In this document: piece by piece, positions 2,469 through 55,984 of the stretch | Layout of the letters: every line of letters starts with the position of its first letter | How positions within the stretch are numbered: position 1 is the first letter of the stretch | Sequence record: MT150133.1 | Source of the DNA: Enterobacteria phage vB_EcoM_IME540 | Length of the DNA stretch: 64,000 bases | Reading direction: 5' to 3' (one strand) | Notes under the pieces: generated by a model | The model's database searches: none | The model's input: the letters and a program-made list of their open reading frames with translations, nothing else | What the model was told of the DNA's origin: nothing | Position numbers and translations under genes: made by a program

Positions 2469-2505
2469 TTTATTCTCCATTTCACTCTGTTGTTTTGATA
2501 GGTCT

Positions 2506-2534
2506 ATAGTATCACACCTATAGACCTTGTACAC
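2506..2534 (-). promoter_or_regulatory. sigma70-type early promoter cassette (-35 GTGTAC, 17-bp spacer, -10 TACTAT) with 10-bp inverted repeat AGGTCTATAG/CTATAGACCT
   Basis: Minus strand ...GTGTACAAGGTCTATAGGTGTGATACTATAGACCTATCAAAACAACAGAGTGAAATGGAGAATAAA-ATG. Confidence 0.55.
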
Positions 2535-2546
2535 TGTTTTGTGCAA

Positions 2547-3506
2547 TTATTTTTCGAAAGGACGAATTAAATGTTGGTTACGCTTAAACCGTTCAATGTA
2601 GTCGTTTTCACCTAAAGTCTTGTACATATTAACCACAGCTTGGTAGTTTTCCCATGCATAAGTGCGGAACCAACCTGAAGTGATTGAGGTGCACACTTTC
2701 TCAAGGGCCATATAGAAACTTAATGATGGTGAAATATTGAAGTCATTAGGAACCTGTGAACGTTCTAGTGCCAGGACACAAGTTTCTTCATACACACCAG
2801 CCAGTTTAATAGCTTCAGGCAAAGCCTCGAACTTCTCACGAGAGGTCATGACTTCAGAACCTTCCTTCATATAAAAGGTATATGCAGGGCGCCCTGCCAA
2901 TGCCACTGCTTCATGGATAGAGTCGTGGTCCAGAGTATAAATGGGATCATTAAAGAACGATGATTTGTTTACATCCAATTTAGGGTGGGAATAGCTCAAC
3001 GTTTCTTTTTGACGTTGCAACATAATTTCCTGGAGTTCTTCGTTAAGGGTGATACCTTTATTACGAAGGTATTTGATGTGGGACATGGTTTTCAAGAAGA
3101 ACGGATTATTCTTCAAGAAACGATGGGAGGTTTTGATAGCCAGACAGATATCAGGGGTTGCCCAATAGAAACCTGTAAGACGGTCCTTTTTAATATGATT
3201 TTCGGCATATTTCAGGAGACGATAACTTGAGGTGAAATCTTCGTCTTGAAGCTCACCGGTAATTTCTCGTACGTTAGTCAGGGCACGAACGATATAAGCT
3301 TCAAAATAGGTTTCTTTACCATTGTACATGCATTTAAAAGCCTGGACATCAGGGTTATCCACAGGAACATGGGCACCAAACATCCGAGCTTTAAAGTGAT
3401 TCCATGAGCCTTGGTCGGCAATGAAATCCCAATCAGAATTTTCGATATGCTTACTTTCAATCAGACCAGCGTGGTGCAGTGCACGAGAACCAATAACTAA
3501 CATCAT
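2547..3506 (-). CDS. hypothetical protein, 319 aa; possible Pol-beta-type nucleotidyltransferase-like motif
   Basis: Start at ATG 3506-3504 with RBS GAGGAAA; N-terminal IGSRALHHAGLIESKHIENSDWDFIAD loosely resembles the hG[GS]...DxD signature. Confidence 0.6.
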   Translation of the reverse strand: MMLVIGSRALHHAGLIESKHIENSDWDFIADQGSWNHFKARMFGAHVPVDNPDVQAFKCMYNGKETYFEAYIVRALTNVREITGELQDEDFTSSYRLLKYAENHIKKDRLTGFYWATPDICLAIKTSHRFLKNNPFFLKTMSHIKYLRNKGITLNEELQEIMLQRQKETLSYSHPKLDVNKSSFFNDPIYTLDHDSIHEAVALAGRPAYTFYMKEGSEVMTSREKFEALPEAIKLAGVYEETCVLALERSQVPNDFNISPSLSFYMALEKVCTSITSGWFRTYAWENYQAVVNMYKTLGENDYIERFKRNQHLIRPFEK

Positions 3507-3821: not shown

Positions 3822-4138
3822 TCACTTCTGCAATATTCTAAAAATAATTTATCATTGTCTACTGTATCCCAACGACGCCAAGACGGGTTCCAGACCAAAG
3901 CGTTGTCACCACAATCATTGAGCTTAAAATGGTCGTAGTACATAGCTATGTGTCTAGTCTCGTCACCAGAGAACCCCAGTATAGGCTCACCGTGGGTGTG
4001 ATACATATGATGGTGCATTGAGAGGTCGCATTTGTAAAACATCTCACGTTTACCACGAACGAACAAGAAGGCCTGTCCATTCATATAGAATTCTTTATTT
4101 GTTTTCAAAAGATATTTGAATACTGAATCTTTATGCAT
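3809..4138 (-). CDS. hypothetical protein, 109 aa, His-rich (MHHHMYHTHGE)
   Basis: Start at internal ATG 4138-4136 with strong RBS AGGAGGA. Confidence 0.5.
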   Translation of the reverse strand: MHKDSVFKYLLKTNKEFYMNGQAFLFVRGKREMFYKCDLSMHHHMYHTHGEPILGFSGDETRHIAMYYDHFKLNDCGDNALVWNPSWRRWDTVDNDKLFLEYCRSDVQL

Positions 4139-4168
4139 AAGTCCTCCTACCACATCCATGTGGTTAAA

Positions 4169-4396
4169 TTATTTTCCTAACGAAATACGAGTAGGTTTTT
4201 TACCGAAATAGTCTTCATAAGAACCATCTAAACGACCTGCTTTAGACCGACAATATGAATCGTACTTTTTGTAATAAGTCATCTCAGTATTATAACGCGG
4301 GTGTCTATCAGCCATAATAATACTTAACGGCCAACCTTTGGCATAATCGCGAAGACCATTTATTTTACGAATGTATCTTTTCTTTAATTTTAGCAT
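4169..4396 (-). CDS. possible small basic protein, 75 aa
   Basis: ORF only; no convincing RBS at either candidate ATG. Confidence 0.3.
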   Translation of the reverse strand: MLKLKKRYIRKINGLRDYAKGWPLSIIMADRHPRYNTEMTYYKKYDSYCRSKAGRLDGSYEDYFGKKPTRISLGK

Positions 4397-4614
4397 GAGC
4401 TCGGATACCAGATTTTACCATCGGCCTGAGCAACGAAGGTGCGTCCAGCTTCTTCACCATAACAAGAGCTATTCAGCCAATCTTCGAGACGAACTTCACC
4501 GTCATAATCGTCGAGCTCAACACCAAAACTTTGAGCAGAAGCCATATCTTTTACTTTCTTATACAGTGCAGCCAGTTCAAGTGCGGCTTTTTCTAATTCA
4601 TTAATATCAGTCAT
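4390..4614 (-). CDS. small acidic protein, 74 aa, member 1 of a four-gene paralog array (C-terminus WYPSSC)
   Basis: Start at internal ATG 4614-4612 with RBS AAGGTGA; shares N-terminal MTDINELEK and C-terminal W-x-SS-x-C pattern with neighbours. Confidence 0.55.
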   Translation of the reverse strand: MTDINELEKAALELAALYKKVKDMASAQSFGVELDDYDGEVRLEDWLNSSCYGEEAGRTFVAQADGKIWYPSSC

Positions 4615-7482: not shown

Positions 7483-7746
7483 TTATTTCATATTATTGAA
7501 ATAATTTTCTGCATCAAAATCATTACCATGGTAAACTTTGGTAGACGATTTGGCGTAACCTTCAGCTGAGAACATATTAATCACAACTTTAATTGTATAC
7601 CACTGTCCATCTTCATTACCCATTACTGCATAGGTTTCATACACCGGGTGTTCAGGACCGATAACCTTAATATCGTTAACTGTGGCACCAAATTCTTCCG
7701 GAACGCATTTCATAAAGAAATTAAACACTTCACCATAATTATCCAT
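7483..7746 (-). CDS. hypothetical protein, 87 aa
   Basis: Track ORF begins at a GTG; real start taken as ATG 7746-7744 with RBS AAGGAG. Confidence 0.5.
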   Translation of the reverse strand: MDNYGEVFNFFMKCVPEEFGATVNDIKVIGPEHPVYETYAVMGNEDGQWYTIKVVINMFSAEGYAKSSTKVYHGNDFDAENYFNNMK

Positions 7747-7781
7747 TTTACTCTCCTTCACTCTGTTGTTTTGATAGGTCT

Positions 7782-7810
7782 ATAGTATCATGTTTAAAGG
7801 AGGTGTAAAC
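7782..7810 (-). promoter_or_regulatory. early promoter cassette (-35 GTTTAC, 17 bp, -10 TACTAT)
   Basis: Minus strand GTTTACACCTCCTTTAAACATGATACTATAGACCTATCAAAACAACAGAGTGAAGGAGAGTAAA-ATG. Confidence 0.55.
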
Positions 7811-7833
7811 ATCTTTTTTAAACTTTTAGAAAC

Positions 7834-7861
7834 AAAAAAGGCCCAACCTTTCGGAAGGGCC
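7834..7861 (-). terminator. rho-independent terminator, copy 1 of identical 30-bp element ACAAAAAAGGCCCAACCTTTCGGAAGGGCC
   Basis: Minus strand reads GGCCCTTCCGAAAGGTTGGGCC + TTTTTT directly after the stop of gene 7867-8421. Confidence 0.65.
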
Positions 7862-7866
7862 GTGAA

Positions 7867-8421
7867 TCAGTTCTTGTAGAACCGGAACGGGTTTATGTGG
7901 AAGGCTAACATAGCCTTAGGGATTTTACGAGACAAAAGACTCTTAAGTTTCCAACCACAGTACACGCGAAGGTAAAAGGTAATTCCACCTACTTTAAGAT
8001 ACGGAACCGAAGCAAAGACTCCCCATGCTTCATCATTCCACATCCATAACCAACCATGGTGAGCTTTATCAGGAGAACCAGATTCTACATCAGGATTACC
8101 GCGATAATGGAATTCTGAACTACAATCACGTCCTAGTTTATGATAAGCAAAGTTATAAGCTTTATTTCGCCATAGCCAAGCTACTCTCTGGAGGTAAACA
8201 CCACCAGGCATTTTCCTGATTTTAGCCCAACGTTTAATATGACCTTTGTCGCCATCAATTGGATTATCGTATGTCATCATCCAATCAAAGCCATAAGGCA
8301 ATTTACCGGTCTTTTTATTGTAGAAAGGAACTACAAAAGGCGCAAGGATAACGGCTAGAACCATAGAGATAAAATCCAGCGGGACCAACAGAATCCAACT
8401 CAAATATTTTAAAAGTTTCAT
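7867..8421 (-). CDS. hypothetical membrane-anchored protein, 184 aa, Trp/His-rich C-terminal domain
   Basis: N-terminal hydrophobic segment LSWILLVPLDFISMVLAVILAPFVVPF; RBS AGGAAATAAT; late-type TATAAATA box 27 nt upstream. Confidence 0.6.
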   Translation of the reverse strand: MKLLKYLSWILLVPLDFISMVLAVILAPFVVPFYNKKTGKLPYGFDWMMTYDNPIDGDKGHIKRWAKIRKMPGGVYLQRVAWLWRNKAYNFAYHKLGRDCSSEFHYRGNPDVESGSPDKAHHGWLWMWNDEAWGVFASVPYLKVGGITFYLRVYCGWKLKSLLSRKIPKAMLAFHINPFRFYKN

Positions 8422-8447
8422 ATTATTTCCTAAGTTAGTTTACTACA

Positions 8448-8455
8448 TATTTATA
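8448..8455 (-). promoter_or_regulatory. late promoter TATAAATA for gene 7867-8421
   Basis: Minus strand TTTTTTGTATAAATATGTAGTAAACTAACTTAGGAAATAAT-ATG. Confidence 0.5.
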
Positions 8456-8456
8456 C

Positions 8457-8484
8457 AAAAAAGGCCCAACCTTTCGGAAGGGCC
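8457..8484 (-). terminator. rho-independent terminator, copy 2 of the identical 30-bp element
   Basis: Same hairpin + T-run downstream of the tRNA/ncRNA region. Confidence 0.65.
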
Positions 8485-8490
8485 TTTAAC

Positions 8491-8715
8491 CTAGGGTAAC
8501 CTTGTCGGGGTTCCACCTGCTAGGCAAGTGTTCGGTGCGCCGTTTCAGCTGTGATAGTAAAGAGCCAGAACACAGTAAAACTGTGGGAGGAACTATACTC
8601 CAGGGAACATCAGTCCGACGACTTACCGGTAGCGACCCGGTTTCTTGTTTGGTGCGCCGGTGAATGCTGGTAATCAGTCTTCATACGACGGCTTGACTAT
8701 ATAATAGTCTTCATT
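8491..8715 (-). ncRNA. candidate small stable RNA(s) downstream of tRNA-Arg, analogous in position to T4 RNA species C/D
   Basis: 225 nt with no credible ORF, between tRNA-Arg and a terminator; internal repeats GGTGCGCCG and AGTCTTCAT; not folded. Confidence 0.3.
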
Positions 8716-8795: not shown

Positions 8796-9461
8796 TCAAA
8801 ATTTTATTTTACGGCCTTTATTCCAACCTTCAGGAATAATATCCGTTTTGTTAATACGTTTAGAAACTTTTTCTTCTAAAGAATGAATCCACATTTTTCC
8901 ATATCCGGAATTATTTTCACCTTGTTGGTGTTTATTTCTGGCGTGAGATTCTTTCATTTTATTTTTGGTTTCATCTGAATGGGTCTTACCCAAGAAAGAT
9001 TTAGTATTTGAAAATTTCTCTCTATACTTAGGATTATCCCAAAGTTGTTTAAACCTTTCCGAACCCATTTTACGATATTTTTCTTTAAGGTCTGGGTCGT
9101 TCTCAAATCTGGTTTTAAAAGCGGCAACTCCTTTTAAGGAAGCTTCTTTCTTTTTATCTAAATATTCTTCAGTGTTTAAATGGTCCCAACCACCTTCACC
9201 ACCTAATTTCAAATTATAAACATCAGGGCGCTTTAAAAACTCTTCAGTCACAATATTCTTTTCTGACTCAAACATAGAGGTTTTATCGTCAAAGAACTCT
9301 AATATTTCTTTAGAGAAATTTTCTATACCGTATTTGACCTGGGCCCTTTTTAAGAGTTTACCAGAACCAAAATATGCATCATTCAAATTTTCGGTTGAAT
9401 GGGCGCCTATATAGATTTTATTATTAATTTTGTTTGTTATTTTATAAGTGTAATGGAACAT
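8796..9461 (-). CDS. segB: GIY-YIG homing endonuclease, segB-like, inside the tRNA cluster
   Basis: 221 aa; N-terminal YKITNKINNKIYIGAHST...GSGK motif; basic NUMOD-like C-terminus; RBS AGGAGA; same position as T4 segB. Confidence 0.8.
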   Translation of the reverse strand: MFHYTYKITNKINNKIYIGAHSTENLNDAYFGSGKLLKRAQVKYGIENFSKEILEFFDDKTSMFESEKNIVTEEFLKRPDVYNLKLGGEGGWDHLNTEEYLDKKKEASLKGVAAFKTRFENDPDLKEKYRKMGSERFKQLWDNPKYREKFSNTKSFLGKTHSDETKNKMKESHARNKHQQGENNSGYGKMWIHSLEEKVSKRINKTDIIPEGWNKGRKIKF

Positions 9462-10903: not shown

Positions 10904-10939
10904 TTTATTCTCCAATCACTCATTTGTTTTGATAGGGCT

Positions 10940-10969
10940 ATAGTACCATCACTAAAGCCCGTTGTAAAC
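10940..10969 (-). promoter_or_regulatory. early promoter cassette (-35 GTTTAC, -10 TACTAT) with inverted repeat GGGCTATAG/CTAAAGCCC
   Basis: Minus strand GTTTACAACGGGCTTTAGTGATGGTACTATAGCCCTATCAAAACAAATGAGTGATTGGAGAATAAA-ATG. Confidence 0.55.
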
Positions 10970-10971
10970 AA

Positions 10972-11244
10972 TTATTTTAAATAAATTGCATATTTTTTAT
11001 AACCAGCCGTCTCGTGGCGCAGCCCTTTTTCATTAGCAAAACGTTCAATATTGTTAATTTGATTCTGGTCGAGTTCTGAAGTATCAAATACAAAAAAGTT
11101 TCGCTTATTGCCTAAAGTTACGTGATTAGTCAAATCGATGTTATAGAGATGATTTATATTATCAATCATGGTCTTAACAGATTTGTTAATTTTTACTTCT
11201 TCATTAAGAATAGATTCAGCGATAAATTCTTGGTATGATTTCAT
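10972..11244 (-). CDS. internal-protein-like, 90 aa, with N-terminal capsid-targeting sequence MKSYQEFIAES
   Basis: N-terminus matches the T4 internal protein (IPI/IPII/IPIII) capsid-targeting sequence MKTYQEFIAEA; body differs from the neighbour. Confidence 0.65.
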   Translation of the reverse strand: MKSYQEFIAESILNEEVKINKSVKTMIDNINHLYNIDLTNHVTLGNKRNFFVFDTSELDQNQINNIERFANEKGLRHETAGYKKYAIYLK

Positions 11245-11245
11245 T

Positions 11246-11470
11246 TTATTCAGCGCCAGCAGCTTTCAAAAGTTTTTTAAGATTGGCTATGCCGCCAGCA
11301 GAAAACGTGACCTTGCCACCTTTTTCATTGATAGAGCCAGTCAATTTAGCAAGCTTATCACTAGGGACTTTTTTAAAATCAGCCAGTGTGCCATCAAAGG
11401 TTTTTGTAACAATTGGCAGTTCATCTTCATGTCTTTTAGCTTCGGTGATAAATTCTTGATAAGTTTTCAT
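11246..11470 (-). CDS. internal-protein-like, 74 aa, with N-terminal capsid-targeting sequence MKTYQEFITEA
   Basis: Capsid-targeting-type N-terminus; early promoter cassette upstream. Confidence 0.65.
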   Translation of the reverse strand: MKTYQEFITEAKRHEDELPIVTKTFDGTLADFKKVPSDKLAKLTGSINEKGGKVTFSAGGIANLKKLLKAAGAE

Positions 11471-11507
11471 TTTGATTTCCGTTTGGTTAGTTTGTTTTGA
11501 TAGGTCT

Positions 11508-11536
11508 ATAGTATCATGCCTATAGACCTTGTAAAC
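11508..11536 (-). promoter_or_regulatory. early promoter cassette (-35 GTTTAC, 17 bp, -10 TACTAT) with 10-bp inverted repeat AGGTCTATAG/CTATAGACCT
   Basis: Minus strand GTTTACAAGGTCTATAGGCATGATACTATAGACCTATCAAAACAAACTAACCAAACGGAAATCAAA-ATG. Confidence 0.55.
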
Positions 11537-11547
11537 AACTTTTTAAA

Positions 11548-12240
<693 letters not shown>

Positions 12241-14958: not shown

Positions 14959-14966
14959 TATAAATA
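14959..14966 (+). promoter_or_regulatory. late promoter TATAAATA for gene 53
   Basis: Exact T4 late consensus 28 nt upstream of ATG 14994. Confidence 0.6.
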
Positions 14967-14973
14967 TTAATAT

Positions 14974-14981
14974 TATTTATA
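14974..14981 (-). promoter_or_regulatory. late promoter TATAAATA for gene 4 (divergent)
   Basis: Exact consensus on minus strand upstream of gene 4 start at 14948. Confidence 0.6.
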
Positions 14982-14993
14982 CTCGGAGGCACT

Positions 14994-15596
14994 ATGCTCT
15001 TCTCATTTTTCGATCCCATCGATTACGAATCAAAAACAGTCAAGCCAGATTCCGGCTCATTAACTGATGCCGATGTACTGAGCGTACCGATGACTGATAT
15101 ATTTAGAAACTATAAAGAATATTTTGATAAAGTGGCTAAAAATTATACACTTAAAACATATTATATCAGTGGGGCCCCTCGTCCAGAAGAATTAGCCCAT
15201 CAACTTTATGGTAACGTGCAATTATATTGGGTCCTTTTAATGTGTAACAATATCTATGACCCTTATTACGGCTGGATTACAGGCCAAGAATCTGCGTATC
15301 AAGCAGCTATTCAACGTTATGCTACTGCAGGCGGAAACCAAGTCCTTTATCATGTCAATGAAAAGGGTGAGAAATTCTGGAATCTAGTAAATACTCCGGA
15401 AAATCCTTATACTTGGTACGATAAAGGTGATACAGAAAAACGTTATCCTCAATATGAAGGTCCTTTGGCTGCAGTAGATATTTACGAGGACGCCATTCGT
15501 AAAAATGAATATAAGCGCGAAATAAAGATTATAGACCCTAATGACATCGAGTCCTTTGTTTCCGCTTTAATTAGAGAAATGGAGAAGTCACTCTAA
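14994..15596 (+). CDS. 53: baseplate wedge protein gp53
   Basis: 200 aa MLFSFFDPIDYESKTV...PMTDIFRNYKEYF...YWVLLMCNNIYDPYYGWIT, matches T4 gp53. Confidence 0.85.
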   Translation: MLFSFFDPIDYESKTVKPDSGSLTDADVLSVPMTDIFRNYKEYFDKVAKNYTLKTYYISGAPRPEELAHQLYGNVQLYWVLLMCNNIYDPYYGWITGQESAYQAAIQRYATAGGNQVLYHVNEKGEKFWNLVNTPENPYTWYDKGDTEKRYPQYEGPLAAVDIYEDAIRKNEYKREIKIIDPNDIESFVSALIREMEKSL

Positions 15597-16231
15597 TGTT
15601 TTATTACGTCTATAAAATAACCAATATAATTAATGGTAAATTTTATATCGGTGCTCATAGTACATCAAATATGGATGACGGTTATATGGGCTCAGGTAAA
15701 TTAATTAAACGCGCTATACTAAAATATGGCATTGAAAATTTCAAAAAAGAAATATTAAAATTTGTTGATTCTAAAAAAGAAATGTATGAACTCGAAAAAG
15801 AACTTGTTGTCCTTACTGAAAATTCATACAATTTAAAACCGGGCGGTTCCGGTGGGTTTTTAAAACATGATAACTTTAAAGGCAGGTCCCATAGTCAGAA
15901 AACCAAAGATATTATGAGCGCTAATAACTCAGGCAAAAACAATCCTATGTATGGTAGAAAACGAGACCAACACGGAGAAAAAGCACCTAATTATGGTAAA
16001 AAGTGCTCTGAGGCTAAAAGAAAATTACTTTCTGAAAAATCTAAATCCTATTTTGAAAACCTTCAAACCATAACTAAAAATCTCGGCTTTGGTCCTACAT
16101 CGGTTGAAACTAGATATGTATCAAGACATATTAAAAAGCTAGGATTAGATTTTTATAAATTTAATCGTGATATAACAGAAACTAATGTTTCCATAGTTAG
16201 AAATATTTTAGAACAAAGGAAAGCGCTATGA
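15596..16231 (+). CDS. GIY-YIG homing endonuclease (seg-like) inserted between genes 53 and 5
   Basis: 211 aa; N-terminus MFYYVYKITNIINGKFYIGAHST...GSGK is a close paralog of the segB-like protein; ATGA overlap with gene 5. Confidence 0.8.
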   Translation: MFYYVYKITNIINGKFYIGAHSTSNMDDGYMGSGKLIKRAILKYGIENFKKEILKFVDSKKEMYELEKELVVLTENSYNLKPGGSGGFLKHDNFKGRSHSQKTKDIMSANNSGKNNPMYGRKRDQHGEKAPNYGKKCSEAKRKLLSEKSKSYFENLQTITKNLGFGPTSVETRYVSRHIKKLGLDFYKFNRDITETNVSIVRNILEQRKAL

Positions 16232-29816: not shown

Positions 29817-31979
29817 ATGATTAACAAATTGGAACTTAGTGAGTTACCATTTGTTGACGGCGTACCTGATGCTCCTCAAAAGCGTATCCAATGGATACGC
29901 GAGGGTGATTGTATGTCTGCAGCAAAAACAAAATACGGCAATGAAGGTAATTTGAACGCTGCTGCTTTAGGAGTTCAGAAAAACGTTGAAGCTCTTGATG
30001 CGAATGATTTGAAAACAGCAGATAAAGTTAACGAACTGGTAGAAAACGTTAATAATATCAATGATGCCTTAGAAATGGCTACTGATATTTCCGTCATCCA
30101 GCAAATTGAGAAAAACCGTGTTGATATCGTGGACCTTAAAAAGGTTACTTCAGAAACAACAGGAAAATTGGATGAGTTAACCACCAATTTTGATTACTTG
30201 CGTGAAGACGTTGGTTACCATGACCCTTTACAAGACGGCCCATATTTAACTGTACGTGAAAATATTGTTCTTCTTAAAACCGAAATAGGTCATTATGAAA
30301 ACCAGGATATAAATGGCAATCCATTGCCTCCGGGTGAAACCAATGAAGCCACTGGTATGAAACGTCGCATCATTGATAATACCACTCAATTGGTCGACCA
30401 TCGTCTTCGCATTGATACCCTTGAAAGGAATTATGAAGATTCTGACGTCGGGCAACTAGGTATTAAATTAAATGAAATTCGTGCTGAACTTGGCCCTCAT
30501 TCTGATACTGTAGGTAAACAACCGGCTTATACCCGAATTTCTGTATTAGAAACGGCTGCAATTAATTTCAATACATCTATCGACGAAATTAAGACTAATA
30601 TTGATTTCTCCGGTATGCCTATAAAGGACCGAGTAACTACTTTAGAAAGCAAAACTCTTACCCTAGAAAATTCAGTCAACGTTGATTTAAAACCTCGTGT
30701 AACATCAATTGAAACCCAAATAGGATCCGAATCAACTCCTACTTCTATTAATGGGCGTTTGAGCGGTCTTCGCACCGATGTAAATGACCTTAAAACCATA
30801 GTAGGTGTTAGTTCAAGTGATGGCTTACGTTTCCAAGTTACTGATATCAACCGCCGTTTAGGTGGTGAAGTATCTCCGGCAGCTGGGACCATTAATAAGC
30901 GTTTAAATGACGTTATTATCCAAGCAAACCAATCTACTTCATCTATCCAGGATATTCAAGTAGAAATTGGAAATAACCAATCCGGTATTAAGGGTACTTT
31001 ACTTAAACTCACCAATAAGGTTGACGGGACAAACCCTAACGGTGCTACTGTAGAAGAACGTGGTCTTATTAACGCGGTTACTTCTTTAGAAACCCAGATG
31101 TTAGGTAAGTTGAATGATGCCCCTTCCGATGGTAAACTTTATGCTCGTCGTAATGCTACATGGACCGAAGTTCCTAACGTTTCTACTGAAATAGAATCTG
31201 TTAAGGATGATTTAGTTGTTACCGATGGTAAAGTGGCAGCTTTAACTTCTAGAGTCGATGGTAATGATACCTCAATTTCTTCTCTTGATACTCGCACCGG
31301 TGCATTAAACACTTCGGTTGGTGAGATTAAAGCAGATATCGTTACTATAAAGGCTAAAGACCTTGAACAGGACAGTCGTTTAACAGCACTTGAATCTAGT
31401 GATGTTACTGTTAATGGAAAAATAACGGCACTTGAATCTAAAACCGATACCACCGATTCTGATGTTACCGCTTTGGCCTTAGATGTGAGTTCTATAGAAT
31501 CACAATTAATTCCTATTAAAGCTGATATAACTAAGAACAAAGGCGATATAGTTACTTTAACCGGACGAGTAGCTGCTAATGAAGGTGAAATTGCCGATAT
31601 TAAATTAGACACCGCTAAAATAGCTCCTTTGGCTACTCGAGTCACTACTGCTGAAGGTAAAATTACCACCTTAGAAACAGGTTTGGCAGCAGTTAAAGTT
31701 GAATCCGATAAAGTTGCAGGAATCAATACCCGTTTAGGTACGGTAGAAGGTAAAGTTGGTACTCTTGAAACAGGTTTAGCAGCGGTTAAAGTTGAATCTG
31801 ATAAAGTTGCTGATTTAGGAACCCGTTTAACTGCGGCTGAAGGTAAAATCACTGCACTAGAAACTGAGTTGGCCAAACGCCCTCCTGTTGCTCCTGTTGC
31901 TGATGGACTTCCATATGTTCTTGTTGATAATGCGTGGGTGCTATTGTCAGATTTTGTGACTTTAAACCCAGCACCATAA
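29817..31979 (+). CDS. wac: fibritin (whisker antigen control, neck whiskers), extended form
   Basis: 720 aa; N-terminus MINKLELSELPFVDGVPDAPQKRIQWIREGD; long coiled coil; foldon-like C-terminus GLPYVLVDNAWVLLSDF. Confidence 0.85.
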   Translation: MINKLELSELPFVDGVPDAPQKRIQWIREGDCMSAAKTKYGNEGNLNAAALGVQKNVEALDANDLKTADKVNELVENVNNINDALEMATDISVIQQIEKNRVDIVDLKKVTSETTGKLDELTTNFDYLREDVGYHDPLQDGPYLTVRENIVLLKTEIGHYENQDINGNPLPPGETNEATGMKRRIIDNTTQLVDHRLRIDTLERNYEDSDVGQLGIKLNEIRAELGPHSDTVGKQPAYTRISVLETAAINFNTSIDEIKTNIDFSGMPIKDRVTTLESKTLTLENSVNVDLKPRVTSIETQIGSESTPTSINGRLSGLRTDVNDLKTIVGVSSSDGLRFQVTDINRRLGGEVSPAAGTINKRLNDVIIQANQSTSSIQDIQVEIGNNQSGIKGTLLKLTNKVDGTNPNGATVEERGLINAVTSLETQMLGKLNDAPSDGKLYARRNATWTEVPNVSTEIESVKDDLVVTDGKVAALTSRVDGNDTSISSLDTRTGALNTSVGEIKADIVTIKAKDLEQDSRLTALESSDVTVNGKITALESKTDTTDSDVTALALDVSSIESQLIPIKADITKNKGDIVTLTGRVAANEGEIADIKLDTAKIAPLATRVTTAEGKITTLETGLAAVKVESDKVAGINTRLGTVEGKVGTLETGLAAVKVESDKVADLGTRLTAAEGKITALETELAKRPPVAPVADGLPYVLVDNAWVLLSDFVTLNPAP
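31650..31870 (+). repeat. tandem ~90-bp direct repeat inside wac
   Basis: Near-identical DNA segments (cttgaaacaggtttagcagcggttaaagttgaatctgataaagttgc) encode repeated EGK.TTLETGLAAVKVESDKVA. Confidence 0.7.
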
Positions 31980-31980
31980 T

Positions 31981-32012
31981 AAAAGGGCTTCGGCCCTTTT
32001 TTGCTATAAATA
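31981..32012 (+). terminator. rho-independent terminator (AAAAGGGC-TTCG-GCCCTTTTTT) followed by late promoter TATAAATA (32005-32012) for gene 13
   Basis: GC stem, TTCG loop, T-run, then exact late consensus. Confidence 0.65.
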
Positions 32013-32033: not shown

Positions 32034-32969
32034 ATGGCAAGTGAATCATATAACCCTAAGCAACTCAAGGACGCAATCCTGCGCCGCCTGGGTGCACCGA
32101 TTACGAATATTGAAGTAACTACAGACCAAGTATACGATTGCATCCAGCGCGCCCTGGAGCTCTACGGTGAGTATCATTATAACGGCTATAACAAAGGTTA
32201 TCAGGCTTTTTATATAGGCCATGATGACGAAGAAAAATTCCGTAACGGCGTATTTGACCTTAAAGGCCGTAATATATTTGCGGTAACACAAATTTTAAGA
32301 ACTAATGTAGGTTCTTTAACATCTATGGATGGCCAAGCGACTTATCCATGGTTTACTGATTTTGTATTAGGCCTAGCTGGTATTAATGGCGGTCTTGGAA
32401 CTTCTTGTAACAGCTTTGGGCCTAATGCCTTTGGTGCTGACCTCGGGTATTTTACACAATTAATGCAATATCGTTCTATGATGCAGGACCTTTTGGTTCC
32501 ATTGCCTGATTATTGGTATAACGATGCCACTGAACAGTTGAAGGTAATGGGTAACTTTGTTAAAGGCGATTTTATTGTAATTGAAGTTTATACTCGCTCT
32601 TTTAATGGGGTCGATTCTATGGTAGGAAATACCGCAGGATATGGATATGCCTCTGGTGGGTGCGACGAAAATGAATGGAGCCCCGGAGCTATTTGGGATA
32701 ACCCGGCTCGTCGTATTTCAGGTATGAGGGCAGGTGAAGACCTTGGTTTGCAAGATGGTTCATATAATAACCGTTGGGTCAAAGATTATGCGACGGCATT
32801 GGTTAAAGAAGTCAATGGTAATATTTTGGCCAAACACCAAGGCATGCAACTTGCGGGTGGAACCACTGTAGATGGTATTCGATTGATTGAAGAAGCTCGT
32901 TTAGAAAAAGAACGCCTTCGCGAAGAATTAGATTTACTCGACCCACCAACACCTATTTTAATTGGATAA
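32034..32969 (+). CDS. 13: neck protein gp13
   Basis: 311 aa; RBS AGAGGAA; matches T4 gp13. Confidence 0.9.
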
Positions 32970-46665: not shown

Positions 46666-46694
46666 TTTTAATCTCCTCATGTTTTGATAGGTCT

Positions 46695-46724
46695 ATAGTA
46701 ACATGTGAGAATCTTGCTGTAAAC
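46695..46724 (-). promoter_or_regulatory. early promoter cassette (-35 GTTTAC, 18 bp, -10 TACTAT)
   Basis: Minus strand GTTTACAGCAAGATTCTCACATGTTACTATAGACCTATCAAAACATGAGGAGATTAAAA-ATG. Confidence 0.5.
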
Positions 46725-46730
46725 AACTTT

Positions 46731-46738
46731 TATAAATA
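46731..46738 (+). promoter_or_regulatory. late promoter TATAAATA for gene 24
   Basis: Exact consensus 29 nt upstream of ATG 46767, back-to-back with the minus-strand early promoter. Confidence 0.6.
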
Positions 46739-46766
46739 AACATATACCCTCAATAAGGAAAGCGCA

Positions 46767-52339: not shown

Positions 52340-52361
52340 TATAAATATAACTATATTTATA
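52340..52361. promoter_or_regulatory. divergent late promoters: TATAAATA on plus (52340-52347, uvsW) and on minus (52354-52361, inh)
   Basis: Two exact consensus boxes back to back in the inh-uvsW intergenic region. Confidence 0.55.
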
Positions 52362-54096: not shown

Positions 54097-54098
54097 AC

Positions 54099-54126
54099 AA
54101 AAAAGGCCCAACCTTTCGGAAGGGCC
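54099..54126 (-). terminator. rho-independent terminator, copy 3 of the identical 30-bp element
   Basis: Same sequence as at 7834-7861 and 8457-8484; T-run on the minus strand. Confidence 0.6.
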
Positions 54127-55972: not shown

Positions 55973-55984
55973 TATTTATAAATA
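55973..55984. promoter_or_regulatory. overlapping divergent late promoters TATTTATAAATA (minus box 55973-55980 for gene 26, plus box 55977-55984 for gene 51)
   Basis: Two exact TATAAATA boxes sharing the central TATA. Confidence 0.55.

Follow-up and report, generated by a model that had tools for sequence, protein, structure and literature searches.

Classical morons of lambdoid phages are promoter-gene-terminator units inserted between genes; their expression takes place in the prophage state and relies on promoters of the host type. In T4-type phages, PeSL and PmSL cassettes and mini-circles have been described (Arbiol et al. 2010, PMC2839356; Comeau et al. 2014, PMC4122927). The phrase 'late promoter' is absent from the earlier of these papers (PMC2839356), and the later one (PMC4122927) treats early and middle versions only. 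T-even phages also possess a polymorphic internal-protein (IP) locus (Repoila et al. 1994, as cited in PMC4122927).

The locus described here lies in a 64,000-nucleotide stretch of DNA from Enterobacteria phage vB_EcoM_IME540 (MT150133.1), hereafter the window, whose source is a JS98-like (Dhakavirus) phage of the T4 type. It is probably an accessory cassette in a hyperplastic region, composed of an intrinsic terminator, the late promoter motif TATAAATA, a Shine-Dalgarno site, a DUF7338 gene and the same terminator again, apparently expressed late and moved by way of its hairpins. A preliminary description of this DNA had proposed a self-contained cassette, and this order of parts is indeed seen directly. 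The parts and their neighbours are as follows.

8485..8715, minus strand: non-coding RNA region from tRNA-Arg to the terminator, comprising an rnaD homologue (T4 species 2 RNA) and a conserved trailer
8455..8484, minus strand: predicted terminator, upstream copy (hairpin 8484-8463, U6 8462-8457), recognized by exact repeat and fold
8448..8455, minus strand: putative late promoter motif TATAAATA, adjoining the terminator U-tract (UUUUUUG-TATAAATA)
8426..8431, minus strand: Shine-Dalgarno-like AGGAAA, 4 nt 5' of the ATG, read off the sequence
7867..8421, minus strand: coding sequence of the DUF7338 protein, 184 aa (Pfam PF24027, phrog_2143, structure model, hydropathy)
7832..7861, minus strand: predicted terminator, downstream copy, closing the cassette (exact repeat and fold)
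7782..7809, minus strand: putative early sigma-70-type promoter of e.8, TTTACA-N16-TACTAT with extended TG (repeat family D1)
7483..7761, minus strand: e.8 homologue, the first gene 3' of the cassette (phrog_2678; 95% identity to the JS98 e.8 region)
54097..54126, minus strand: third predicted terminator copy, at the convergent junction of uvsW.1 (plus strand) with the gp25/uvsY/DUF2685 (uvsY.-2-like) unit (minus strand)

The preliminary description had reported identical 30-bp repeats on both sides of the gene and a third copy at 54097-54126. An exact repeat search agrees: the 30-mer ACAAAAAAGGCCCAACCTTTCGGAAGGGCC occurs exactly three times in the window (7832-7861, 8455-8484 and 54097-54126), no additional match appears there when up to three mismatches are allowed, and the count in 100 dinucleotide-preserving shuffles was zero, giving a chance expectation of none. 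Only the start of the first copy needed correction, from 7834 to 7832, two bases having been cut off. Repeats common throughout the genome had been named as an observation that would tell against the cassette; this does not apply, because there are only three copies in the window and they are not scattered. Sequence identity among the copies ends little past 30 bp, and close relatives carry two to four copies per genome. On the minus strand, each copy reads GGCCC-UU-CC(GAAA)GG-UU-GGGCC followed by U6, with a predicted centroid hairpin energy of about -14 to -15 kcal/mol; for the upstream copy, fold energies range from -14 to -18 kcal/mol. A T-tract after the hairpin was also looked for on the plus strand and is absent; the element is therefore read as one-directional, and a bidirectional reading was dropped. 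With its GC-rich stem, GAAA loop and U-tract on the minus strand only, the element has the sequence features of an intrinsic (Rho-independent) terminator, to which class its sequence and predicted fold assign it, as had been proposed. It supplies three of the eight best-formed hairpin-plus-T5 sites of the window, and was overlooked by an automated terminator scan on account of its 2x2 internal loop.

The two copies at the locus have distinct partners. When the window is aligned with T4 and JS98, the upstream copy falls at the T4 GCCCCGACCGAAAGGTTGGGGC-T5 position; at the sequence level it is thereby identified as orthologous to the terminator that follows rnaC in the T4 tRNA operon, and it is predicted to end the tRNA/stable-RNA operon. 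The non-coding RNA region that precedes it gives 98-99% matches to T2 and T4 relatives, and the rnaC body is absent from 8485-8715 when aligned with T4 and JS98. The downstream copy, together with the e.8 early promoter, corresponds in sequence to a canonical PeSL-type unit. The cassette promoter had been described as unlike those of its neighbours, and e.8 does instead carry the early sigma-70-type element at 7809-7782.

The motif TATAAATA lies at 8455-8448 on the minus strand, 26 nt 5' of the ATG. It is found 20 times in the window against 7.6 expected, and gene-proximal copies, including that of the endolysin gene e (283-276), stand 18-33 nt from the ATG. Four phages of two genera (JS98, LHE83, LF82-1 and ESh27) keep it at the same offset, despite about 26% nucleotide divergence. 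Late promoters of the T4 type need no -35 element, and TATAAATA stands here at a distance that suits such a promoter; the late-type box at 8448-8455 reported earlier is present, and its spacing matches that seen at accepted late genes elsewhere in the window. From the motif, its spacing and its conservation in relatives, we infer that 7867-8421 is expressed late. We propose that the upstream hairpin would halt early and middle transcripts of the tRNA/rnaD operon, while at the abutting late promoter the gp55-type late transcription apparatus would start 26 nt 5' of the ATG, so that expression of the gene would be confined to the time of the late genes. The cassette transcript would end at the downstream hairpin, just short of the e.8 early promoter.

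A comparison of related phages, which the preliminary description had suggested as a check, reveals the cassette as present, lost, decayed or relocated between hairpins. These natural insertion and deletion variants are directly visible in the genomes. In T4, one orthologous terminator is present and the DUF7338 gene is absent, e.8 following rnaC across 284 nt. The window and LHE83 share the order Term-Pl-DUF7338-Term-Pe-e.8, and JS98 carries a second late cassette (Term-Pl-DUF7338-Term-Pl-orf135-e.8). SHP1 has one Term-Pl-orf135 and, relative to JS98, is missing exactly the gene and one repeat; its left flank equals JS98 copy A and its right flank copy B, placing the junction inside the repeat. 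IME341 retains only a remnant of the gene (the first 17 nt and the last ~50 nt), adjoining a different internal-protein-like late gene, and combines a GCCCC-type upstream hairpin copy with a GGCCC-type downstream copy. In the Mosigvirus phages LF82-1 and ESh27, the unit occupies a different locus, after rI. Its similarity to the window, ~74% at the nucleotide level, spans 7833-8482 and stops at both hairpins; both flanks carry the compensatory stem variant GCCCC..GGGGC, and TATAAATA again follows the upstream hairpin. In LF82-1, this hairpin plus TATAAATA module also precedes the orf135 homologue at the end of the tRNA operon. The neighbouring or replacing cassette proteins of JS98, SHP1, IME341 and LF82-1 start with the IP-like MKTYNEFL or MYTFNEFL. 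The surroundings of the locus (e.8, rnaD and the tRNA side) are 90-98% identical across many phages. Judged from its deletion or decay in the natural relatives SHP1 and IME341, the DUF7338 gene is dispensable. The third terminator copy (uvsW.1/uvsY.-2) displays no indel or cassette polymorphism in the relatives sampled; a check for an insertion hot spot there turned up one longer variant, P479, whose extra ORF sits between uvsW and uvsW.1, off the hairpin.

These variants bear on the earlier suggestion that the repeats are potential recombination sites, with which the breakpoints of T4, SHP1/JS98 and Mosigvirus, all at hairpins, are in accord. The duplicated hairpin may be both footprint and substrate of homologous recombination: a crossover between two copies would excise the gene and one copy, and a circle or foreign genome with one copy, recombining with any resident copy, would insert the cassette. 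PeSL ('promoter-early stem-loop') cassettes have been described as moving in this way, and by analogy we infer recombination at the hairpins as the mechanism, here with a late promoter. As a counter-point, the shared stretch is short, at 30 bp (up to ~39 bp when TATAAATA is included), and crossovers in longer homologous flanks during mixed infection could also have produced the variants.

The cargo belongs to a large protein family. Its membership is seen directly: the window protein matches Pfam DUF7338 (PF24027) with an E-value of 2e-63 and a score of 213.7 bits, where the cut-off is 27, and residues 1-183 align over the full length of the model (positions 1-179 of 180), and phrog_2143, again full length, with 2.6e-80. 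The family comprises 969 clusters at 50% identity and 592 phage records. All of the DUF7338 motifs (T-x-D-N-P..G-D, W-L-W-R-N..Y, G-W-K and N-P) are found in the window protein, as are all of the invariant residues (T50, D52, W82, R85, N86, Y89, R152, G156, W157, K158 and P178), defined as invariant columns on family alignments of 30 and 32 sequences. The open reading frame, hydropathy and composition bear out the earlier account of a 184-aa protein with one N-terminal membrane anchor and a Trp/His-rich remainder: a single hydrophobic segment covers about residues 3-36, and the remaining 144 residues include 9 Trp, 6 His and 10 Tyr. An AlphaFold2 model has a mean pLDDT of 94.2. Taken with this model, the protein probably crosses the membrane once in type II orientation (N-in, C-out) and bears an alpha/beta domain rich in aromatic residues; hydropathy and flanking charges place the anchor at the N-terminus and the C-terminal domain, presumably, outside.

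Topology prediction and a remote homology search had been suggested as checks. The former returned the single N-terminal helix; the latter yielded no remote relatives of known function. Foldseek gave no match of the model below E 0.7 in the PDB and only DUF7338 family members in BFVD, the family profile had no match among PDB sequences, and the PADLOC and NCBIfam models, searched for defence and exclusion families, produced none at E <= 1. A full-text literature search for 'DUF7338' returned no papers, and the gene goes unnamed in the main text of the PhageMaP paper on Felixounavirus Bas63. Some Felixounavirus records carry the label 'holin', and Yersinia phage GN1 the label 'structural protein'; we regard both annotations as unsupported. 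Homology to the T holin in divergent form was rejected (hhalign probability 0.1%, Pfam DUF7338 only, no structural match). Identity with a T4 internal protein was likewise rejected: the MKTYQEFIAE-type capsid-targeting N-terminus is missing, and the protein begins with the hydrophobic MKLLKYLSWILLV.

The gene neighbourhoods of homologues are varied. In Ah1 and phiAS5, the homologue lies after the tail-fibre genes, on the same strand and directly before the e lysozyme and an Rz-like ORF, occupying the slot of T4 t between the tail-fibre genes and asiA; no T holin is detectable in the whole genome of Ah1. The STP4-a homologue is ~670 nt upstream of the endolysin, the window gene is 7.6 kb away from e, and the Mosigvirus gene, beside rI, was counted in favour of a link to lysis. 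Dhakavirus, Mosigvirus and Slopekvirus possess the T holin as well, which was counted against an essential lysis role. The contexts of four distant metagenomic members offered no recognizable neighbours. A strict link between DUF7338 and tRNA genes was discarded, as the association, though frequent, is missing in Mosigvirus, Ah1/phiAS5, the prophage and the metagenomic contigs.

Two alternatives concern the cassette itself. According to one, the gene is not specifically late but is transcribed mainly from an unrecognized promoter or by read-through out of the early/middle tRNA operon, TATAAATA being incidental to the A/T-rich tail of the terminator. The homologues in RB43, KP27, phiAS5 and Ah1 lend themselves to this reading, for their hairpin stands directly before the Shine-Dalgarno site with no TATAAATA between. 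In those phages, transcription must pass the hairpin to reach the gene, which suggests some read-through of these hairpins; they may therefore leak, and read-through from the tRNA operon could give early expression here. Furthermore, the homologues in Felixounavirus, PG7 and phiPsa374 sit among tRNA genes and are probably co-transcribed, and some 7.6 chance copies of the motif, just an 8-mer, are expected per window. We nevertheless consider it improbable that the gene is not specifically late, given the constant offset of TATAAATA in four other phages of two genera at ~26% divergence and an ATG distance, 26 nt, equal to that at the e lysozyme gene and structural genes of the window. The second hairpin copy of JS98 also bears the motif just where a second cassette gene follows, one that is probably late because of its internal-protein-type N-terminus, whereas the window copies with no cassette gene after them (7832-7861 and 54097-54126) lack it. 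According to the other alternative, the hairpins are a favoured strong terminator, kept identical by selection, marking the ends of transcription units and with no part in movement, and the indels arose by ordinary homologous recombination in the long conserved flanks when phages infected together. The small number of copies, the third of them free of cassette polymorphism in the relatives sampled, the 90-98% identity of the flanks and the occurrence of terminator plus late promoter junctions at ordinary late-gene boundaries (for example ~31981-32012) would all agree with it. To this reading, too, we assign little probability. SHP1 and JS98 differ by exactly one repeat unit and the gene, with the junction within the repeat; the Mosigvirus copy, in a non-homologous neighbourhood, has similarity bounded by the hairpins; and copies within each genome share a stem variant, with the mixture of GCCCC upstream and GGCCC downstream in IME341 being what exchange at that point predicts. 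Movement via the hairpins and late expression thus remain the reading that we prefer for the cassette.

For the protein, we envisage anchoring in the inner membrane by the N-terminal helix, with a folded domain of ~150 aa in the periplasm, and an action at the envelope late in infection. Our best guess, a weak one, is a lysis-associated role, holin-like or in lysis timing, because the homologue is directly 5' of the endolysin gene in Ah1, in which no T holin could be detected. Another possible, though somewhat doubtful, role is that of an envelope-directed accessory: it could mask receptors, exclude superinfecting phages or, as a small enzyme anchored in the membrane, modify LPS or the cell wall. 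Progeny would in this way be guarded from adsorbing to debris, or competitors excluded. In its favour, homologues follow tail-fibre and tail-fibre-chaperone genes at the end of a Chitinivorax prophage, a Gly-rich fibre-like gene in a metagenomic contig, and the tail-fibre genes of phiAS5 and Ah1, the usual place of receptor-related morons; the family has an invariant polar set (D52, R85, N86, Y89, R152 and K158), and the gene is dispensable and co-exists with the T holin. Less easily accommodated are the lack of similarity to known exclusion, defence or modification families (Pfam, PADLOC, NCBIfam) or to any solved fold (PDB), and the position directly before the endolysin where no T holin is detectable, which suits lysis better. 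The T4 exclusion genes imm and sp, moreover, are early, whereas the DUF7338 gene looks late. Several further observations speak against a lysis role: the gene is lost or decayed in SHP1 and IME341, neither sequence nor fold resembles that of T, the invariant polar residues resemble an enzyme or specific binding site more than a typical holin, and the prophage and metagenome genes that come after tail-fibre genes are moron-like. A more far-reaching form of the lysis reading, which we think unlikely, is that DUF7338 constitutes an unrecognized class of lysis protein with a T-like outline and an unrelated fold. It would be the holin in phages of the Ah1/phiAS5 type, possibly the missing holin of Felix O1-like phages, in which a holin has not been identified (PMC3185647), and an accessory lysis-timing or lysis-inhibition factor beside T, as in Dhakavirus and, next to rI, in Mosigvirus. 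If this were true, its spread over unrelated myovirus lineages would be explained by carriage in a terminator-bounded late cassette and by its having settled repeatedly in tRNA clusters.

The locus neatly illustrates, in natural isolates, how phages of the T4 type may add, drop and relocate accessory genes with their timed transcription programme undisturbed, one short terminator apparently acting as insulator, boundary and crossover site. The family that it carries is large, its confident model has no known fold, and its contexts (before the endolysin, beside rI, after tail-fibre genes and in tRNA clusters) point to a late, envelope-directed role. The hairpin-to-hairpin unit suggests a 'safe harbour' design for late-expressed payloads in T4-like therapeutic phages; natural variants with no cassette, with one and with two all exist at the site.

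Several known systems share features with this locus. The T4 tRNA/rnaC terminator has the same loop and adjoining trailer (CAACCTTGTCGGGGTTCCACCTGC); here the stem is altered by compensatory changes, and the element is present in three copies and has become joined to a late promoter. Akin to the T4 holin T, the DUF7338 protein is apparently expressed late and combines, in some 200 residues, a single N-terminal transmembrane helix with a large C-terminal domain whose predicted location is the periplasm, but it is without the ~30-residue cytoplasmic N-terminal segment of T. Similar to a moron, the unit is autonomous, carries a non-essential gene, is inserted at a gene boundary and is present or absent among relatives; it differs in residing in a virulent phage and in using a phage type of late promoter. 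With the IP locus, as outlined in the citing article, it has in common the exchange of alternative late accessory genes at a fixed spot near the tRNA region, with conserved boundary motifs, although DUF7338, starting MKLLKYLSW, is a membrane protein with no capsid-targeting N-terminus.

PeSL and PmSL come closest. There too, a terminator stem-loop joined to a promoter is repeated in hyperplastic regions, flanks non-essential ORFs and accompanies sites where close relatives differ by an insertion, deletion or replacement, and transcription of the insert is insulated. Both copies at the locus have the PeSL layout (stem-loop just before the promoter, Shine-Dalgarno sequence and ATG), and breakpoints of the PeSL kind were found on comparing T4, the window, JS98, SHP1, IME341 and Mosigvirus. 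Only three copies of the stem-loop per genome are seen here, however. The upstream stem-loop, moreover, is joined to the late TATAAATA, with no -35 element, and not to a sigma-70-like early or MotA middle promoter; the downstream copy alone pairs with an early promoter. The promoter of the cassette gene being late and not early, we class the cassette as a late variant and not as PeSL proper, a pairing that extends the PeSL idea from early and middle to late genes.

The region shares 94-97% identity with that of the JS98-like coliphages LQ5, LHE83, AnYang, MX01 and JS98, members of the genus Dhakavirus in the subfamily Tevenvirinae. The local gene order is as follows.

9573-9503, minus strand: tRNA-Met
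9461-8796, minus strand: segB-like GIY-YIG homing endonuclease, between tRNA-Met and tRNA-Arg
8790-8716, minus strand: tRNA-Arg
8485-8715, minus strand: non-coding RNA sequence of ~230 nt, between tRNA-Arg and the DUF7338 gene
7867-8421, minus strand: DUF7338 gene, 184 codons
Downstream of the DUF7338 gene, minus strand: genes e.8 to e.1, a run whose last member is the endolysin gene e, where the window begins

The endonuclease gene is one of two GIY-YIG/NUMOD3 homing endonuclease genes in the window (8796-9461, minus strand; 15596-16231, plus strand), the other lying directly 3' of a 200-aa ORF (14994-15596). JS98 has tRNA-Asn instead at the segB position. Elsewhere in the window, two tandem 93-nt units (31646-31831, plus strand; 75% identical) lie within a long plus-strand gene and have a coding pattern that looks like a coiled-coil repeat. 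Relative to the window, phage P479 carries an extra 261-aa ORF between uvsW and uvsW.1 (463-1248 of its stretch, L034).

The DUF7338 gene is bracketed by a 30-bp element found in exactly three copies in the window (7832-7861, 8455-8484 and 54097-54126), with no near-matches there and zero occurrences in shuffled controls. The minus-strand fold of every copy is GGCCC-UU-CC(GAAA)GG-UU-GGGCC with U6 after it (about -14 kcal/mol); because no T-tract follows the hairpin on the plus strand, the element would terminate in one direction only. The preliminary description was right about the identical repeats, the distant third copy and their nature as minus-strand terminators, although the start it gave, 7834, was two bases short. 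In T4 the same stretch runs segB, tRNA-Arg, rnaD, rnaC, 284 nt and e.8, with a hairpin, GCCCCGACCGAAAGGTTGGGGC-U5, right after rnaC. Since the trailer CAACCTTGTCGGGGTTCCACCTGC flanks both this T4 hairpin and the upstream copy in the window, the upstream repeat is the orthologue of the T4 tRNA/stable-RNA operon terminator. T4 has this terminator once, and no gene intervenes before e.8. The window retains a homologue of rnaD (species 2 RNA) that shares 98-99% identity with T2 and T4 relatives, and comparison with T4 finds the body of rnaC absent from the stable-RNA region (8485-8715). A piece of ~65 nt there (8714-8650, minus strand) ends in GGCGCACCA, resembling a tRNA 3' end, and is called by neither ARAGORN nor Rfam.

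A late-type box does distinguish the gene from its neighbours, as first proposed: the T4-type late promoter motif TATAAATA at 8455-8448 (minus strand) abuts the U-tract (UUUUUU-G-TATAAATA) and lies 26 nt from the ATG, with AGGAAA in the gap, whereas the next gene, e.8, has an early promoter instead (TTTACA-N16-TACTAT, 7809-7782). The motif occurs 20 times in the window against 7.6 expected, and its gene-proximal copies, including the one before e, sit 18-33 nt before an ATG. Divergent back-to-back pairs of the motif lie between oppositely transcribed late genes (14959-14981, 52340-52361 and 55973-55984). Terminator and late promoter junctions also occur beyond cassettes, as before the plus-strand gene at 32034, where the composite AAAAGGGCTTCGGCCCTTTTTTGC-TATAAATA (~31981-32012, plus strand) stands 21 nt ahead of the ATG; this shows the same design in use at ordinary late-gene boundaries.

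In a working model, the upstream hairpin would halt early and middle transcripts of the tRNA operon, the late promoter would begin transcription late, and the downstream hairpin would shield e.8 from late read-through. As a caveat, in the homologues of RB43, KP27, phiAS5 and Ah1 the hairpin is followed at once by the SD and no promoter intervenes, and such hairpins must therefore pass some transcription. In phiAS5 and Ah1, tail-fibre genes are upstream on the same strand, so that expression of the homologue would still be late. By all sequence criteria the cassette is predicted to be late.

The encoded protein matches its earlier portrayal, with one N-terminal anchor (a single hydrophobic segment, approximately residues 3-36) and a Trp/His-rich remainder (9 W, 6 H and 10 Y in 144 residues). 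Over its full length it falls in Pfam DUF7338 and PHROG 2143, neither with an assigned function. The family is large, with 592 phage records and, in a 1.84-billion-protein library, 969 clusters at 50% identity; almost every member is a single-domain protein of 160-220 aa. The family ranges across Dhakavirus, Gelderlandvirus (81% identity), Mosigvirus, Karamvirus, Pseudotevenvirus, Slopekvirus and Felixounavirus (~58%), with more distant members in Aeromonas, Pseudomonas and Bacillus phages. In the AlphaFold2 model, which is confident (mean pLDDT 94.2), a long N-terminal helix (2-33) is joined by several short ones and by an antiparallel sheet of five strands. Average flanking charges in the family, +2.5 on the N side and +0.8 on the C side, favour an N-in, C-out topology. 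Residues T50, D52, W82, R85, N86, Y89, R152, G156, W157, K158 and P178 are invariant.

Checking relatives for the cassette between its repeats revealed different states at the hairpins in T4, JS98, SHP1 and IME341.

Gene order at the locus (Term, terminator hairpin; Plate, late promoter; Pearly, early promoter)
Window and LHE83: Term-Plate-DUF7338-Term-Pearly-e.8
JS98: Term-Plate-DUF7338-Term-Plate-orf135-e.8

In JS98 the second hairpin copy is also followed by TATAAATA, and orf135 (3870-4487 of its stretch, L001) encodes 205 aa with the N-terminus MKTYNEFLNE, which resembles the sequence that targets T4 internal proteins to the capsid. The SHP1 locus has one hairpin, whose left flank, CCCTAGGTTAAAG, is that of JS98 copy A and whose right flank, TATAAATAGATAAGTTAATTAAC, is that of JS98 copy B; what is missing is precisely the DUF7338 gene and one repeat. 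In IME341 the upstream copy is a GCCCC-type hairpin followed by a different internal-protein-like gene with its own terminator; next comes a remnant of DUF7338, its first 17 nt fused to its last ~50 nt, and a GGCCC-type hairpin closes the unit. The relatives display every state expected under crossovers in the hairpin, and a crossover between copies would excise or insert the unit. These variants show the DUF7338 gene to be dispensable and the locus to be a hot spot for late-promoter cassettes. The comparison upholds the structural part of the proposed self-contained cassette with recombination repeats; its late timing stays a prediction.

The same unit recurs in a different neighbourhood in the Mosigvirus phages LF82-1 and ESh27, with the DUF7338 gene (74% amino-acid identity) directly downstream of the lysis-inhibition gene rI. 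Megablast similarity covers window positions 7833-8482 (LF82-1) and 7819-8485 (ESh27), that is, hairpin to hairpin. Each flank consists of GCCCCTTCCGAAAGGTTGGGGC and a U-tract, the stem being a compensatory variant, and the upstream copy is likewise followed by TATAAATA. In LF82-1 the hairpin and TATAAATA module also closes the tRNA/rnaC operon, where it probably drives an orf135 homologue. Copies within one genome have a common stem variant, which differs between genera; this fits exchange or conversion among copies.

A second late-cassette family, phrog_2280, uses the same hairpin and TATAAATA junction. Its members, JS98 orf135 and genes of IME341 (L020, 2077-2541) and LF82-1 (L022, 837-1463), encode proteins of 154-208 aa with internal-protein-like N-termini (MKTYNEFL/MYTFNEFL) and a Pro/Ala/Lys-rich middle; the cassette is absent from the window. 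Two window genes, 10972-11244 (MKSYQEFIAE...) and 11246-11470 (MKTYQEFITE...), both on the minus strand, have products with the capsid-targeting motif of T4 internal proteins and no Pfam match.

Gene context offers clues to what the protein, an interesting cargo, may do. In phiAS5 and Ah1 DUF7338 comes after the tail-fibre genes and is followed by e lysozyme, an ORF with a match to an Rz-like spanin PHROG and, on the opposite strand, asiA; in T4 the slot of DUF7338, e and the Rz-like ORF is occupied by the holin gene t. None of the 355 features of the whole Ah1 genome is annotated as a holin, nor did a T4 T query, which does reach T5-like holins at 28-30% identity, find a match in that genome (best E-values 0.91 by tblastn and 0.3 by phmmer). 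Ah1 carries rIIA/B, rIII and the pseT.3/pseT.2 spanins. In STP4-a ~670 nt separate the DUF7338 gene from the endolysin downstream of it, and the place after rI in Mosigvirus is a further lysis-related setting. An essential part in lysis is disfavoured for the window phage by the presence of the T holin in Dhakavirus, Mosigvirus and Slopekvirus as well, the loss of DUF7338 in SHP1 and IME341, and the absence of homology between the DUF7338 protein and T.

Receptor or envelope modification, or exclusion, would suit the moron-like settings of the gene, after the tail-fibre chaperone where a Chitinivorax prophage ends, and after a fibre-like gene on a metagenomic contig. It lies inside tRNA clusters in Felixounavirus (NS7), Karamvirus PG7 and Pet-CM3-4, and Otagovirus phiPsa374, adjoins one in Dhakavirus and Gelderlandvirus (STP4-a), and in RB43 and KP27 is separated from a tRNA by ~0.9 kb; possibly these clusters are recombination-prone hyperplastic regions that carry DUF7338 along in unrelated phage lineages. 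Given the lysis, moron and tRNA contexts and the points against, a lysis-associated role is the best guess, albeit a tentative one that we would sooner doubt than assert, with receptor or envelope modification, or exclusion, about equally likely.

The cassette is related to the PeSLs, terminator stem-loops fused to a strong early promoter, which recur in the hyperplastic regions of T4-type genomes, flank non-essential ORFs, mediate deletions, insertions and replacements, and yield excised mini-circles; a middle-promoter version, PmSL, is reported for nt-1 (Arbiol et al., PMC2839356; Comeau et al., PMC4122927). Similar boundaries at the internal-protein locus are credited there to Repoila et al. 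1994. Repeat family D1 of the window (2491-2551, 7767-7827, 10925-10985, 11493-11553 and 46680-46740), an early promoter (TTTACA-N16/17-TACTAT) that overlaps the palindrome AGGTCTATAG..CTATAGACCT and precedes small early genes, looks like the PeSL early-promoter cassettes of other T4-type phages. At the DUF7338 locus, the downstream copy and the early promoter of e.8 together make up a PeSL as published, and the upstream copy with TATAAATA is its late-promoter counterpart. Since the phrase 'late promoter' appears nowhere in Arbiol 2010 (PMC2839356), we treat the cassette as a well-documented case of an established principle, here in a form that is new in having a late promoter.
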